Notes under the pieces: model-generated | What the model was told of the DNA's origin: nothing | The model's input: only the letters and a program-made list of their open reading frames with translations | Database searches by the model: none | Source: a virus | UHGV virus genome: UHGV-1357920 | Strand: one strand, 5' to 3' | Length of the DNA stretch: 10,730 nt | Translations under genes and position numbers: made by a program | Shown here: piece after piece, positions 3,180 to 10,182 of the stretch | Layout: every line of letters starts with the position of its first letter | Position numbering within the stretch: position 1 is the stretch's first letter

Positions 3180-3719
3180 ATGAGTAACTGGTGGCAGGAA
3201 CTATTACGTTTCTTCCTGCGTGGTCTTACGCTACAACAGTTAATTCATATGCTTATTATTTTAATTGCCTTGATAATAATCACCCCCGCATCAATTAAAG
3301 AGTGGGTAGATATAAGGAACCCAGAAATACTTCCAGATCACTGGATGTATTACGCAATGCTTTTGTGTATCAGTTATGTTCTGAACAGGGTGATGGAGTT
3401 TATATTTCTGGCATCTTCAGACAGATATAAAAAATATCTCAGTAAGAGAGATGAGGCTAAAGTAATTGTGGAGACTGAGCGCCTGTTCAATTCTCTGAGT
3501 ATTCAGGAAAAAGAGGTTTTAGCATTTGCTGTTATGGCAAATAACAAAATCGTACTTAAGCACGGCGATCCGGTCGCTTTATCTCTTATGAGAAAAGGCC
3601 TTCTCCATCGCTCAGGTGTGACTTACAGCGCGTCAGGTAAAGAGAAATTTGTTATACCTGACGTCTGGTTCCATGAGTGTTATATGCGCTTTGCTGGTAA
3701 AGCTGATGAGCTAATTTAG
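3180..3719 (+). CDS. sieB: SieB-like superinfection exclusion membrane protein, 179 aa
   Basis: Plus-strand ORF embedded among leftward pL-operon genes and convergent with N (its 3' end is 22 nt from the N stop), the arrangement I recall for lambda sieB. N-terminal hydrophobic helices (LIHMLIILIALIIITPA; YYAMLLCISYVLNRVMEFIFLA); SD GGAG 8 nt upstream. The call is based on position and membrane topology, not on a verified alignment. Confidence 0.5.
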   Translation: MSNWWQELLRFFLRGLTLQQLIHMLIILIALIIITPASIKEWVDIRNPEILPDHWMYYAMLLCISYVLNRVMEFIFLASSDRYKKYLSKRDEAKVIVETERLFNSLSIQEKEVLAFAVMANNKIVLKHGDPVALSLMRKGLLHRSGVTYSASGKEKFVIPDVWFHECYMRFAGKADELI

Positions 3720-5741: not shown

Positions 5742-6446
5742 TCACGAACTTTTCAGCCATTCCCTTGCCTCGATGTCATCCAGATGGCGAGACTGCTTCA
5801 GAATACCAGCAACATACTCCACCTTTGCTACTTGATGATAAGGCAACGTTATTGGCCTGTGGTCCTGGTTGATGCTTGTAAATTGGTATTCTCCATCTCT
5901 GTCATAGCCAAGAACCTTAATCATGTTGTGTCCTTCAACGGTTCTGACAAACACCTCATCACCCGGGAATACTTTGGTGTTAGGCTCAATGAGTACATAT
6001 TCTCCTGATTTTATTCTGGGCCACATGCTGTCTCCTTTCACACGAAGACCAAAGGCATCTGGATCATCGCTATAAATTTTGAGCCACCCATCGCGCTCTT
6101 CGGTCATCTCGATGGCACCATCAACACCAAGAATTGCCTCACCAACCACGCGCACTAACCCTTTTCTTACCTGACCGACAAAAGTTAAAGAATCTGAGCA
6201 TGATGCAATTGGTGTTACATCATGTACCAAATCAAGCCACCCATTAGGTAACCCAAGCGCGGCTTCAAATTTTCTTGCTAGTTTATCCCCTATGTTTCGA
6301 GTGCTTTTTTCACCGGAGACTTGCGTGAGTTGAGAAGGGCTAACCCCAAGCTTATCGGCAAAGCTTGCATTAGTGTTACCCGCGATTTTTTTATGCTCAT
6401 CTAGCAAAAACGCCAGATTCGATTTGCGAATATCTTTGTTTTCCAT
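5742..6446 (-). CDS. cI: CI-type prophage repressor (N-terminal HTH plus C-terminal S24/LexA-like autocleavage domain), 234 aa
   Basis: The N-terminus has an XRE-type HTH (...ASFADKLGVSPSQLTQVSG...). The C-terminal domain carries the S24 peptidase signature GDSMWP (Ser nucleophile) and a downstream Lys (MIKVL). It is divergent from the cro-like gene across an operator-rich 113-bp spacer. Confidence 0.85.
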   Translation of the reverse strand: MENKDIRKSNLAFLLDEHKKIAGNTNASFADKLGVSPSQLTQVSGEKSTRNIGDKLARKFEAALGLPNGWLDLVHDVTPIASCSDSLTFVGQVRKGLVRVVGEAILGVDGAIEMTEERDGWLKIYSDDPDAFGLRVKGDSMWPRIKSGEYVLIEPNTKVFPGDEVFVRTVEGHNMIKVLGYDRDGEYQFTSINQDHRPITLPYHQVAKVEYVAGILKQSRHLDDIEAREWLKSS

Positions 6447-6559: not shown

Positions 6560-6793
6560 ATGAGTAATGAACTACTACGCTGGCGAAAAGAGGCTTCTAG
6601 TGAGGAATGGAAGCGACTCGCCGCATTAGCGAAAACTTCAGTTGGCTATCTTGACCAGATTGCATATGGATTTCGAAGAGCTTCCCCTGATAAAGCGAAT
6701 GCAATCGAAGAAGCTACTCGTAATTTCACGGGTTATAAACCTGTGAAAAAGGAAAACCTGGTGTTCGTATCGCGTAGAGCATCGGCTGCATAA
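6560..6793 (+). CDS. cro: Cro-like early repressor (small HTH protein), 77 aa
   Basis: First gene of the rightward operon, divergent from cI, with strong SD GGAGG at 5-nt spacing. It contains a probable HTH (LAALAKTSVGYLDQIAYG). It is not lambda Cro by sequence; the call rests on position and size. Confidence 0.6.
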   Translation: MSNELLRWRKEASSEEWKRLAALAKTSVGYLDQIAYGFRRASPDKANAIEEATRNFTGYKPVKKENLVFVSRRASAA

Positions 6794-6931: not shown

Positions 6932-7231
6932 ATGGAACAAACAAGTTACAGCAAACTATCACAGCGTGACGTTGATCGCGCAGAAACAGATTTACTCATC
7001 AACCTGTCAACTATTACCCAGCGCGGTCTGGCAAAGATGATTGGCTGTCATGAATCGAAGATAAGCAGAACGGACTGGCGGTTTATTGCTTCGGTCCTGT
7101 GTGCTTTCGGAATGGCATCAGACATCAGTCCGATTAGCAGGGCTTTTAAGTATGCGCTTGATGAAATCACCAATAAAAAACGCCCGGTGTGCAAGACCGA
7201 GCGTTCTGATCAAATACAAATGGAATTTTAA
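6932..7231 (+). CDS. cII: CII transcriptional activator, 99 aa
   Basis: The C-terminus ...ITNKKRPVCKTERSDQIQMEF matches the lambda CII C-terminus (...LTNKKRPAATERSEQIQMEF) as I recall it. Central HTH region present; located downstream of cro and nutR. Confidence 0.85.
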   Translation: MEQTSYSKLSQRDVDRAETDLLINLSTITQRGLAKMIGCHESKISRTDWRFIASVLCAFGMASDISPISRAFKYALDEITNKKRPVCKTERSDQIQMEF

Positions 7232-7253: not shown

Positions 7254-7397
7254 ATGCGAAAAACGCAGGAAAATAAACGCGTTAATCACCGAAAAGATGT
7301 GCTACGTGACCAGTTTTATCAGGGGGTTAATCCAGCAATAGCTGTGCCACTGAGAGAAATACTTAACAGGTACAAAACTTCGGAGAAGTCAAAATGA
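7254..7397 (+). CDS. Small basic hypothetical protein, 47 aa (internal start of track ORF 7086..7397)
   Basis: ATG at 7254 is preceded by SD GAGG (7243-7246); its stop overlaps the start of the O-like gene (ATGA at 7394-7397), suggesting translational coupling. Sequence MRKTQENKRVNHRKDVLRDQFYQGVNPAIAVPLREILNRYKTSEKSK. Could be a spurious ORF. Confidence 0.4.
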   Translation: MRKTQENKRVNHRKDVLRDQFYQGVNPAIAVPLREILNRYKTSEKSK

Positions 7398-8191
7398 GCA
7401 TGAATCTTATGGCTAAGGCCATGAATATAAAGGTTGGCAACCCACTGAGAAAACTGGTTCTGATTAAACTTGCCGATAACGCCAATGATAATGGCGAATG
7501 CTGGCCTTCATATCAACATGTCGCTGACCAGTGTGAGGTGAGCAGATCGACAGTAAAAAGTCACATTAGGGCACTGGAAGAGATGGGGCTTTTGAAAAGG
7601 GAATTCAGAAGAAAAGGAGAGCTTAACCAGTCAAACGTTTTTTATCTGACGCTGGATAATGCACAACAAATCCAACCAGAATCAGGTGGGGCAGGAGCTG
7701 CCCGGGGTGGGGCAGGAGCTGCCCGGGGTGGGGCAGGAGCTGCCCTAGGGGGTGGGGCAGGAGCTGCCCCCAGAACCTATCACTCTTTTGAACCAGTCAA
7801 TGAACCTAAAAACATTATGTTCGAACATGTCCGAACGGAGTGTGAAAAAACTCCTGACCGTCACGAAGAAACCGACAAGGCATTCGAGGAAATATTCTGG
7901 TGTGCAGGCATGCGGAAAGCCGGGAAGAAAAACGCAGCTTCGGCATTCAGAACACAGTTCAGGGAATGGCGTAAAACTACCAGGGGTACGGCAAGCGAGT
8001 TTGCCACGATGCTGGCAGAAGACATCGCATGCAGGAGTGGTAAGCAGTTCGGATTCGACAGGTTGTTACCATCGAGCTACCTGAACGGTCAACGCTGGAA
8101 CGACGAGAAGCCAGAAACTATTCAACCGCAACCCAAACCATCATCCGCAATCACCGTATCGAAAACTGGCTACGTGTTTTTCGACAGGTGA
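7394..8191 (+). CDS. Replication initiator (lambda O-like role) with N-terminal winged-HTH and an iteron-encoded Gly/Ala-rich linker, 265 aa
   Basis: The N-terminal HTH region (CWPSYQHVADQCEVSRSTVKSHIRALEEMGLLKRE) is typical of phage replication-initiation proteins. The central peptide repeat GGAGAAR is encoded by four tandem DNA iterons. The gene sits after cII, where lambda O and P22 gene 18 lie. Confidence 0.7.
   Translation: MSMNLMAKAMNIKVGNPLRKLVLIKLADNANDNGECWPSYQHVADQCEVSRSTVKSHIRALEEMGLLKREFRRKGELNQSNVFYLTLDNAQQIQPESGGAGAARGGAGAARGGAGAALGGGAGAAPRTYHSFEPVNEPKNIMFEHVRTECEKTPDRHEETDKAFEEIFWCAGMRKAGKKNAASAFRTQFREWRKTTRGTASEFATMLAEDIACRSGKQFGFDRLLPSSYLNGQRWNDEKPETIQPQPKPSSAITVSKTGYVFFDR
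7686..7769. repeat. Four tandem iterons (GTGGGGCAGGAGCTGCCC; period 21, 21, 24 bp), putative phage origin inside the initiator gene
   Basis: Directly visible copies at 7686-7703, 7707-7724, 7728-7745 and 7752-7769, followed by a relatively AT-rich stretch (about 7775-7835). This is the same architecture as lambda ori inside O. Confidence 0.7.
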
Positions 8192-8301
8192 ACCATGAGA
8201 TCCAGAATCAAATCGTTACTTATCGCTGGCTATAACCATGGCTGGCTTAGTTCTGCATTCGTTGAGTTCTGGTTTAACCGTCTCGATCTGAGGTCAGCGT
8301 A

Positions 8302-10182
8302 ATGACTCCAAGTGAACTGAGCGACCTGCTTTGGGCGCAGGTTGACAGGGTGGCTCCGCACCTGTTGCCAAACGGCAAGAAAGAGGGGCATGAGTGGGTT
8401 GCCGGTAATGTCAACGGTGACAAGGGAAACAGCCTTAAGGTCAACCTTAGCGGCAAGAAAAAATGGGCTGATTTCGCCGAGGGAGACGGCGGTGACATGC
8501 TTGATTTGTGGATGGCATGTCGTGGAATTAACCTGCATCAGGCTATGCAGGAAGCGAAAGCATTTCTCGGTATCAAGGATGACGATCACCATTTCGATGC
8601 CAGACGTGAGAAAAAATTCTCCAGACCTGATCGCAAGAAAATCGCCCGCTACGTTACCAGAACAGAATCCCATCTTGAGTACCTGCAATCGCGTGGCATA
8701 TCGCCAGAAATCGTAAAGCGCTACGAGGTTGTCAGCGGCAAGGTGTGGAATGGAGAGCGGGAACTGGATGCTCTGGTGATTCCGTACAAACGCGATGGTG
8801 AGTTGTTGCAGGTCAAGCGAATCAGCACTGAGCGCCCGGACGGGAAGAAAGTCATTATGGCAGAAGGTGATTGCGAACCTTGCCTGTTCGGATGGCAGGC
8901 TCTGGACGCTGGCGTGAGGGCGGTTGTACTTTGCGAAGGCGAAATTGATTGTATGAGCTATGCGCAATACGGCATCTCGGCGTTATCCGTACCGTTTGGT
9001 GGAGGGAAAGGCGCTAAGCAACAGTGGATTGAGTTTGAGTATCACAACCTCGACAGGTTTGAGGAAATATTCATCTCGATGGACGTTGATGATGTTGGTC
9101 GTGAAGCCGCAAGGGAAATCGCAAGCCGACTCGGTGAACATCGTTGCCGTCTTGTTACTCTGCCGTGCAAAGACATCAACGAATGCCTGATGAACGGTGT
9201 TACCGAGGATGAAATCTGGCAGTACATCGGCACGGCATCCTACTTCGATCCTGAAGAACTCTACAGCGCGCGAGAGTTTTACCAGGACACTATCAACGCT
9301 TTCTACGGCAAGCAGCAGTATCTGTTTAATCCACCGTGGGAATCTCTGGCAGATAAATTCCAGTTCCGTGAGGCAGAGTTGACGCTGGTCAATGGTGTGA
9401 ACGGTCACGGAAAAACGGAGGTTGTCGGGCATATGGCACTTGAGGCAATGCGTCAGGGTGTGAAGACGTGCATCGCGTCACTTGAGCTGAAGCCTGGTAT
9501 TCTCCTTAAGCGCCTTACCCGTCAGGCGACGTGCTGCAAGATGCCACCAGTGCTGGAAATTGACTCTGCATTTAAATTTTATGACGAAAGACTTTGGGTG
9601 TTTGGCCTGACCGGAACGGCGAAAGCCGACAGGCTGATCGAAATATTCGACTACGCTCGCCGCCGATACGGGATCCAGTTATTCATCATCGACAGCCTGA
9701 TGAAATGTGGCATAGGCGACGATGACTATAACGGGCAGAAGGCGTTTGTTGACTCGATTTGCGACTTCAAAAACAAAACAAACTCCCACGTCATTCTCGT
9801 TACTCACTCGCGAAAAGGAGACAGCGAAGAAAAACCAACCGGGAAAATGGACGTAAAAGGCTCTGGAGCGATAACAGACCTGACAGACAACCTTTTCATC
9901 ATCTGGCGTAACAAGGCTCGCGAGAGAGCGTTACAGAGAGTTCAGAGTGGTGAAAAGATGTCAGAGAAGGACGAACAGCTACTGGCATCTCCGGCATCTG
10001 TTTTGATGCTTGAAAAACAACGTAACGGCGAAGGTTGGGAAGGTGGTGTCCCGTTGTTCCTTGACGAGCAATCGCACCAGTTCCTGCAACTTGAATCAGG
10101 ATCGCCATATAGCTACATCGCCAATATGCCGAAATCGGAATATGACGAGGCGTGGCGACAGGAAAACGTGACGGAGTATTAA
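8302..10182 (+). CDS. Bifunctional primase-helicase (degenerate zinc-ribbon-like N-terminus, TOPRIM primase, DnaB/gp4-like RecA-fold helicase), 626 aa
   Basis: TOPRIM motifs (VVLCEGEIDCMSY with the conserved Glu; ISMDVDDVG with DxD). Helicase Walker A (NGVNGHGKTE) and Walker B (LFIIDSLMK). The N-terminal segment aligns by eye to the DnaG/gp4 zinc-binding domain but lacks the Cys/His ligands. Confidence 0.85.
   Translation: MTPSELSDLLWAQVDRVAPHLLPNGKKEGHEWVAGNVNGDKGNSLKVNLSGKKKWADFAEGDGGDMLDLWMACRGINLHQAMQEAKAFLGIKDDDHHFDARREKKFSRPDRKKIARYVTRTESHLEYLQSRGISPEIVKRYEVVSGKVWNGERELDALVIPYKRDGELLQVKRISTERPDGKKVIMAEGDCEPCLFGWQALDAGVRAVVLCEGEIDCMSYAQYGISALSVPFGGGKGAKQQWIEFEYHNLDRFEEIFISMDVDDVGREAAREIASRLGEHRCRLVTLPCKDINECLMNGVTEDEIWQYIGTASYFDPEELYSAREFYQDTINAFYGKQQYLFNPPWESLADKFQFREAELTLVNGVNGHGKTEVVGHMALEAMRQGVKTCIASLELKPGILLKRLTRQATCCKMPPVLEIDSAFKFYDERLWVFGLTGTAKADRLIEIFDYARRRYGIQLFIIDSLMKCGIGDDDYNGQKAFVDSICDFKNKTNSHVILVTHSRKGDSEEKPTGKMDVKGSGAITDLTDNLFIIWRNKARERALQRVQSGEKMSEKDEQLLASPASVLMLEKQRNGEGWEGGVPLFLDEQSHQFLQLESGSPYSYIANMPKSEYDEAWRQENVTEY

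Follow-up and report, generated by a model that had tools for sequence, protein, structure and literature searches.

A repeat array inside an HTH_36-type initiator gene is the probable iteron region of a lambdoid prophage replication origin

The 10,730-nucleotide (nt) stretch of viral DNA analyzed here (UHGV virus genome UHGV-1357920; hereafter, the window) corresponds to the immunity and replication region of a lambdoid prophage, with the gene order cI, cro, cII, small open reading frame (ORF), HTH_36 initiator, small ORF, and primase-helicase. A tandem repeat array lies within the initiator gene, and we conclude that this array is probably (at a probability of roughly 0.8) the initiator-binding, or iteron, part of the prophage replication origin, carried inside the initiator's own gene. 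This conclusion, which comes from sequence comparison, is based on the gene context, the positional equivalence of the array with annotated lambda-type origins, the occurrence of the array as a DNA feature throughout the initiator family, the conservation of its DNA rather than of its peptide, the co-variation of the repeat with initiator specificity, and the uniqueness of the array in the window. The relevant features are the following.

7394-8191, plus strand: initiator gene (265 amino acids), O-like by position and role, defined by its ORF, its translation, and its Pfam and PHROGs matches.
7394-7684, plus strand: coding region of the N-terminal DNA-binding domain (amino acids 1 to 97), delimited by the family alignment.
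7685-7769, inside the initiator gene: putative iteron array, four units of GGTGGGGCAGGAGCTGCCC with start-to-start spacings of 21, 21, and 24.
7770-7806, directly after the last iteron: family-wide conserved DNA element of ~33 nt (CC AGA ACC TAT CAC TCT TTT GAA CCA GTC AAT GAA CC).
7807-8188, plus strand: coding region of the C-terminal domain, which is common to initiators with other N-terminal domains and iterons.
8302-10182, plus strand: Toprim and DnaB-family primase-helicase (626 amino acids), the presumed partner loaded at the origin.

Tandem Repeats Finder reports a period of 21, 3.9 copies, 95% matches, and a score of 143 for 7685-7769, and a separate repeat search finds 4 copies with spacings of 21, 21, and 24 nt. 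The two methods thus agree with the original prediction, which had placed four copies with these spacings in the middle of an O-like gene. The 15-nt core GGGCAGGAGCTGCCC is exact at 7689-7703, 7710-7724, 7731-7745, and 7755-7769, and the window contains no further copy, even when 3 mismatches are allowed; there are 8 matches over both strands compared with 0.12 expected from shuffles, and 0 of 200 shuffles reach 8. Each unit contains the dyad GGGCA-GGAGC-TGCCC (5-5-5), which can also be read as 6- to 7-nt arms around a 3-nt center. The array corresponds to nt 292 to 376 of the 798-nt ORF and is translated as GGAGAARGGAGAARGGAGAALGGGAGAAP, that is, as the GGAGAAR repeats of the linker peptide that had been predicted. 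The GC content falls from 0.70 to 0.83 in the array to 0.33 to 0.38 at 7780-7839.

The initiator consists of an N-terminal winged helix-turn-helix (HTH) domain, the repeat-encoded linker, and a C-terminal domain. The N terminus matches Pfam HTH_36 (PF13730) over amino acids 17 to 67 (E = 5.5e-14; 52.1 bits versus a cutoff of 25), and the PHROGs matches of the protein (4617, 270, and 8540) are labeled "replication initiation" or "O-like." The models of the lambda O N terminus, Phage_rep_O and TIGR01610 (NCBIfam phage_O_Nterm), give no match to the window initiator, whereas ES18 gp59 does match (E = 1.5e-38), which confirms that the N-terminal domain is of a kind other than that of lambda O. An hhalign comparison of the HTH_36 N-terminal domain alignment with the lambda-O-type N-terminal domain of ES18 was not significant (probability, 0.5%), the alignment being a shallow one. 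Remote similarity of lambda O to HTH_36 by HHpred has been reported (PMC5509034). The initiator has no Pfam match to Rep_3, the family of plasmid iteron initiators, and no solved structure is related to it by sequence. In the family alignment, amino acids 1 to 48 of the N-terminal domain are nearly invariant, while amino acids 49 to 80, which comprise the recognition helix and the wing, are variable.

The position of the array can be compared directly with that of annotated origins. From position 7807 on, the window is 92 to 97% identical at the nucleotide level to the "O" genes of ES18, epsilon34, g341c, Sf101, mEp043, and others, genes with N-terminal halves of the lambda O type. Megablast places the joint at query position 414, corresponding to window position 7807. 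ES18 has an annotated rep_origin (depositor note, "similar to lambda ori") of 85 bp that contains four lambda-type iterons and ends 38 bp before the common segment. Epsilon34, likewise with four lambda-type iterons over 85 bp, has an equivalent annotation ("putative origin ... site of gene 50 protein binding"), and Sf101 has four units of the GTCACC...GGTGAC type, a third iteron type, in the equivalent place. The window array is likewise 85 bp long and ends 37 bp before the common segment. These comparisons indicate that one C-terminal module and its helicase partner have been naturally joined to at least three N-domain/iteron cassettes and that the window repeat fills the iteron slot. In such mosaics, the iterons go with the N-terminal domain. 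The window and the Salmonella phage SI5 agree in N-terminal domain and iterons but differ in C-terminal domain, which in SI5 is of the S135 type (the S135 N-terminal domain is 71% identical, and its iterons are different), whereas the window and ES18 or Sf101 have the C-terminal domain in common but differ in N-terminal domain and iterons. The claim of a lambda ori architecture is therefore supported by the gene context, by the position of the array relative to the iterons of ES18, epsilon34, and Sf101, and by the family-wide conservation described below. One further feature lies at the start of the module common to these three phages.

7807-7838: A-run AAAAACATTATG and imperfect palindrome GTTCGAAC-ATG-TCCGAAC (7819-7836).

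The ES18 counterpart of this palindrome is GTCCGAA-AGTG-TTCGGAC. This segment may represent a right-hand part of the origin that moves together with the C-terminal domain and the primase-helicase.

For the family as a whole, HTH_36-type initiator genes were gathered from annotated phages, IMG/VR contigs, and one genome per bacterial species, and were reduced to a nonredundant set of 85 genes with <90% nucleotide identity in the N-terminal domain, 84 of which are complete. A tandem array with a period of 21 to 24 that overlaps nt 230 to 480 is present in 74 of the 84 complete genes, and there are no arrays of this period elsewhere in any of the 84. A repeat of this kind is thus present in most homologous initiator genes. 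The 74 genes come from hosts that include Pseudomonas, Vibrio, Aeromonas, Shewanella, Xenorhabdus, Aggregatibacter, and enterics. The density of perfect 5-5-5 dyads is 1.44 per 100 nt within the arrays versus 0.16 in the remainder of the genes. Dyads and peptides of individual lineages are listed here.

Window: dyad GGGCA-GGAGC-TGCCC, peptide GGAGAAR.
mEp460 and Aeromonas phages: dyad GTGCA-GGAGA-TGCAC.
Shewanella phages: dyad GTGAA-GGAGA-TTCAC.
Erwinia and Vibrio D290: dyad GTGAC-ACAGA-GTCAC.
Klebsiella RothD: dyad TGCCA-CCAGA-TGGCA.
mEp554: dyad GTGTC-AGAGA-GACAC, peptide GSVRETPGVVSERH.
ZF40: peptide PVPPKST.
S1249: peptide GMPADST.

The array peptides are unrelated between lineages, while the period of 21 to 24, the internal dyad, and the position are kept across the family. 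This is difficult to reconcile with the possibility that the repeat only encodes a slippage-prone Gly/Ala linker, has no DNA function, and lies apart from the true origin. That explanation would account for units that are identical, that vary from 1 to 10 copies in close relatives, and that are gained or lost in 21- or 24-nt steps; Gly/Ala-rich low-complexity peptides are typical of linkers, and the existence of one-copy alleles means that a gene can do without multiple units, at least as regards the reading frame. However, in some genes the units are not even read in one frame. The spacing between successive units is 22, 23, or 25 nt in mEp554, the Pseudomonas prophages L153 and L163, L069, Erwinia L151, and L179, so that their translation falls into different frames (e.g., GSVRETP and then VVSERHR from one DNA unit). 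Furthermore, the array nucleotides are more conserved than the third codon positions of the N-terminal domain. In four groups of related genes, 64 to 89% of the array columns are invariant, compared with 12 to 31% of these third positions. An unconstrained linker is expected to be the least conserved part of a gene, not the most conserved. When the lambda-type iterons in the equivalent position of the recombinant genes are also taken into account, linker coding alone is a very improbable explanation of the array.

Within arrays, the 5-nt arms are constant and the 5-nt center varies, as in GTGCA-GGAGA/AATAA/GCAAA/GGAGT-T(G/T)CAC and GGGCA-AATAA/GGATT/GGAGC-TG(A/C)CC. Constant arms around a variable center would be expected if a dimeric helix-turn-helix protein reads two major grooves one turn apart. 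Together with the frame shifts between units and the invariant array columns, the constant arms indicate that selection acts on the repeat DNA and not on the peptide. In Pseudomonas class F arrays (L152-L180, gene nt ~323 to 337), the inter-iteron spacer is GGGGG in some and CCCCC in others of a set of near-identical arrays; the encoded residue is accordingly Gly or Pro, and the G/C tract is kept on either strand.

The arm classes sort with recognition-helix classes, as shown here.

Helix RSTVK.H: arm GGGCA.
Helix KSAVR.H: arm TGCCA.
Helix KRSVMNH: arm GTGCA.
Helix RRSVM.HV: arm GTGAA.
Helix KR(S/T).MRH: arm GTGAC.

This association points to binding specificity in a way that is suggestive but not proof. 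The repeat is kept in kind over the family while its sequence tracks the recognition helix, and this supports the distinct ori/initiator specificity that had been proposed for the window. A finer correspondence, in which E63D in the recognition-helix region would co-vary with the C/A allele of the iteron (TGCCC or TGACC), was rejected, as L032, L024, and L039 do not fit it and some arrays are mixed. The arms co-vary with the recognition helix of the initiator and not with the host taxon or the C-terminal module. This argues against a reading in which the array and its conserved flank serve in recombination or mark a module junction, or are bound by some other protein such as a host factor, which would not need lineage-specific sites. 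The mosaic joints with ES18-type and S135-type genes do fall just to the right of this region, and 33 nt is about the length needed for homologous exchange, but there is only the slightest chance that such a role explains the array.

The conserved flank itself, 7770-7806, has the consensus CCAGAACCAGTCACTCTTTTGAACCAGTCAAnGAACC, is found in nearly all family members, and encodes (P/T)RTSHSFEPVxEP. It contains two direct GAACCAGTCA repeats 18 nt apart (three in many genes); in the window, the first repeat has the change AGT to TAT. Among the 85 nonredundant genes, which come from Pseudomonas, Vibrio, Shewanella, Aeromonas, Aggregatibacter, and enteric phages, each of the 11 element codons is a single codon in 96 to 100% of cases, with Arg encoded by AGA in 78/78, Glu by GAA in 85/85 and 79/79, and Val by GTC in 82/84. 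In comparison, the major codon accounts for a mean of 54% at 50 conserved columns of the N-terminal domain, with 3.6 codons per column, where Arg is mostly CGC or CGT and Glu is mostly GAG. Changes within the element are mostly nonsynonymous (T to I, F to S or L). Codon usage of this kind reflects purifying selection on the element at the nucleotide level. In 139 phage records the element occurs once per genome, and it lies inside the initiator gene in every match listed. Its presence is independent of the C-terminal domain and of the partner, which may be a primase-helicase, a DnaB-type helicase, or a lambda P-like loader, and it is not present in the lambda-O-type initiator genes compared (ES18, epsilon34, and Sf101). 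An upstream copy of the GAACCAGTCA motif, TAACCAGTCA at 7624-7633, is not significant, since 24 of 200 shuffles give at least 2 matches. A literature search on the core sequence gave no relevant match.

Most plausibly, the element is part of the origin and is a candidate unwinding or loading site. Its separate conservation could also be taken to mean that the cis-acting region extends beyond the array and that the repeats bind the initiator mainly for control, by autoregulation, titration, handcuffing, or a roadblock to transcription from pR, with unwinding and helicase loading elsewhere. Highly variable copy number would suit such dosage tuning, and plasmid iterons serve in both replication and control. 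However, the conserved element adjoins the last iteron in every family member examined, as the unwinding region does in lambda, and the window has no second iteron set and no further repeat array. We consider a mainly regulatory role for the array unlikely.

Copy number varies among close relatives from 1 to 10, as the original prediction anticipated. There is 1 copy in Stx2_16002, 2 in EH2086 and phage SI5, 3 in phi24B and most of the O157:H7 genomes sampled, 4 in this window and three complete Escherichia coli genomes, 5 and 6 in other genomes, 6 in phiKp_30, 7 in EH2085, 8 in strain S51, and 10 in strains 2009C_3689 and UTAK-8. Among 23 complete genes of the window type, four have 1 copy, nine have 2, three have 3, two have 4, one each has 5, 7, or 8, and two have 10. 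The copy-number steps are 21 or 24 nt, and the protein database contains many initiator length variants in 7-amino-acid steps. The units are identical within a genome, which indicates that the array in the window lineage is remade by slippage. SI5 (2 copies), phiKp_30 (6 copies), and phi24B (3 copies) were deposited as complete phage genomes, two of them from water or sewage, which suggests, but does not prove, that 2 to 6 units are compatible with phage growth. Four IMG/VR draft contigs (L022, L023, L025, and L032) and the deposited phiKp_30 record (L005) end within the array, and copy numbers from short-read assemblies are therefore unreliable. In another IMG/VR contig (L026), a window-type gene (1-369) stops at codon 123, directly after a two-unit array, and this is either a frameshift that arose in the repeat or an assembly error. 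Apparent cases of the same iterons with a different N-terminal domain (phiKp_30 and E. coli matches starting at query position 292) were rejected as artefacts of the record end and of BLAST placement in 8- to 10-copy arrays, as the N-terminal domains are identical.

Several observations weigh against the array being an origin component. In the window lineage the units are identical and number from 1 to 10, with four complete genes that have 1 copy, and this looks like neutral slippage with no fixed number required. The GCTGACC allele that is common in relatives weakens the palindrome in each unit by one arm mismatch. The association between helix and iteron is confounded by tight physical linkage and common descent, and the window N-terminal domain has no homology to lambda O that profile tests detect. 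The more AT-rich segment that had been predicted after the array exists as a drop in GC content, but it is no strong A/T-rich unwinding tract, and 7780-7839 is unlike the ~40-bp A/T tract of lambda. Finally, the searchable literature yielded no experimental binding or origin activity for any member of the HTH_36 family.

If the array is an iteron region, binding, bending, unwinding, and helicase loading may proceed by analogy with lambda. Dimers of the N-terminal winged-HTH domain would bind each palindromic unit, of which the half-sites GGGCA and TGCCC are centered ~10 bp, or one helical turn, apart. A unit spacing of 21 to 24 bp is two turns and would place the dimers on one face of the DNA, so that a nucleoprotein complex resembling the lambda O-some could form. 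Such a complex would destabilize or mark the adjoining conserved 33-nt element (7770-7806), and the C-terminal domain would then recruit the Toprim/DnaB-type primase-helicase of the phage, the gene for which lies downstream. The peptide with its Gly/Ala repeats would be a by-product, tolerated as a flexible linker between the two protein domains.

Recruitment of the primase-helicase by the C-terminal domain is suggested by a common tail, PSSAITVSKTGYVFFDR (8138-8188, the last ~17 codons). This tail is found in all examined initiators that precede a Toprim/DnaB primase-helicase, even where the C-terminal domain is otherwise different, and relatives with P-like loaders as partners lack it; in S135, S107, and S137, the final 59 nt of the initiator gene are 100% identical. 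The tail may be a helicase-docking motif. The downstream gene is not a lambda P-type loader. Its product has Pfam matches to Toprim_2, AAA_25, and DnaB_C and matches PHROG 239, DNA primase/helicase (E = 7e-172). It is 94% identical to ES18 gp61 and 96 to 98% identical to the phi24B "P" protein over the aligned parts, phi24B having an extra 342-amino-acid insertion. The phi24B/O157:H7 primase-helicase (L001 4888-7794) is a 968-amino-acid protein that equals the 626-amino-acid window protein plus this insertion, which lies inside Walker A (GHGK | ACPLNE ... VATHN | TEVVG) and is missing from the primase-helicases of the window and of ES18. With its C-terminal His-Asn followed by Thr, the insertion appears intein-like.

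The remaining genes of the region are as follows.

3180-3719: SieB-like gene.
5742-6446, minus strand: cI (S24 peptidase).
6560-6793: cro-like gene.
6932-7231: cII.
7254-7397: 47-codon ORF, the stop of which overlaps the initiator start (ATGA).
8195-8302, plus strand: 35-codon ORF between the initiator and primase-helicase genes, homologous to ES18 gene 60.

The initiator gene is thus flanked on both sides by small ORFs, each of which overlaps an adjacent start or stop; the 35-codon ORF ends in TAATG with the primase-helicase start. These overlaps suggest translational coupling along the replication operon. A 20-nt inverted repeat (7309-7328 and 7439-7458; 90% complementary, with arms 110 nt apart) spans the initiator start at 7394, and its arms could pair in the mRNA and affect initiator translation. 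An Rfam scan found no relevant family up to E = 1, and promoter and terminator scans were at chance level.

We tentatively extend these findings to the whole HTH_36 family, with somewhat less than even confidence. Its origins might be in-gene and in two parts, with dyad iterons that are specific to each lineage and co-evolve with the recognition helix, and with a universal core of ~33 nt (CCAGAACCAGTCACTCTTTTGAACCAGTCAAnGAACC), constant in nucleotide sequence from Pseudomonas to Vibrio to E. coli phages, that is the obligatory unwinding or loading site, whatever the helicase or loader. Either the invariant part of the initiator or a universal host factor would recognize the core sequence specifically, and iteron number would tune origin strength, and hence the replication of Shiga toxin (Stx) phages, between strains. 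We found no description of an invariant origin core of this kind for phage origins.

The module is the replication unit of a group of Shiga toxin 2a phages (phi24B, Min27, and Stx2a_F403), and a probable origin with predicted binding sites makes its replication directly testable. Iteron number is a ready means of telling strains apart and may modify phage replication; as a speculative extension, it could also affect toxin dose. The dozens of initiator/iteron pairs form a natural dataset for a winged-helix recognition code, and the invariant 33-nt element flags candidate origins in the 139 matched phage records.

The closest known systems include phages with the Eru5 replication unit, of which Stx2a_F403 is the type example, defined as an HTH_36 protein and a primase only (PMC8951638). 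The window initiator gene is 96 to 97% identical at the nucleotide level to the "O" genes of the Stx2 phages phi24B, Min27, Stx2a_F403/F451, and others (96.0% over the whole gene for Stx2a_F403). Compared with the Eru5 phages Stx2a_F403, phi24B, and Min27, the window has an equivalent initiator, the identical iteron type, which these phages carry in 3 copies, and a primase-helicase with 96 to 98% identity. The authors who defined the Eru units state that nothing is known about the replication of Eru phages (PMC8951638), and the Eru papers, including that one, nowhere mention iterons, repeats, or an origin. Our searches of the literature on the iteron and core sequences, HTH_36, and phi24B iterons found nothing that describes an HTH_36/Eru5 origin. 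In-gene iteron origins with type-specific sequences have been known in lambdoid phages for decades (PMC8022706). The principle is thus known, while an origin of the HTH_36/Eru5 type, its features across the family, and the invariant core are apparently undescribed in the literature searched.

ES18 gp59, epsilon34 gp50, and the Sf101 and mEp043 "O" proteins resemble the window system in the C-terminal half of the initiator, the gene 60 ORF, the gp61-type primase-helicase, and the iteron position. ES18, epsilon34, and Sf101 differ from it in their lambda-O N-terminal domains and in their iterons, which are lambda type (ES18 and epsilon34) or GTCACC type (Sf101) and are followed by an A-rich tract without the GAACCAGTCA element. 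With lambda ori and O themselves, the window has in common iterons within the initiator gene at the boundary of the N- and C-terminal domains (PMC8022706 and PMC7466680), units of ~18 to 20 bp with an internal dyad and about two helical turns apart, and a gene that follows cII in the early right operon. The window differs from lambda in its HTH_36 N-terminal domain in place of Phage_rep_O/TIGR01610, in iterons that are G+C rich, identical, and polymorphic in number (1 to 10) where those of lambda are diverged, in the conserved 33-nt element in place of the ~40-bp A/T tract, and in the use of a phage primase-helicase where lambda uses P and host DnaB.

The origins in gene 18 of P22 and gene 18 of phage L are similar in having been inferred from in-gene repeats whose sequence differs by initiator type (PMC8022706). 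They differ in that they belong to other initiator families and have other repeat architectures, phage L having six imprecise 11-bp repeats, and in that the partner is the DnaB-type helicase gp12. Rep_3 plasmids (RepA/RepE/pi and TrfA) also have winged-helix initiators, iterons of ~19 to 22 bp at intervals of ~22 bp, and an adjoining unwinding element with short repeats. In these plasmids, monomers bind the iterons, which are located outside the rep gene. In contrast, the window iterons lie inside the gene, and the dyad form of each unit implies that, as with lambda O, dimers bind.

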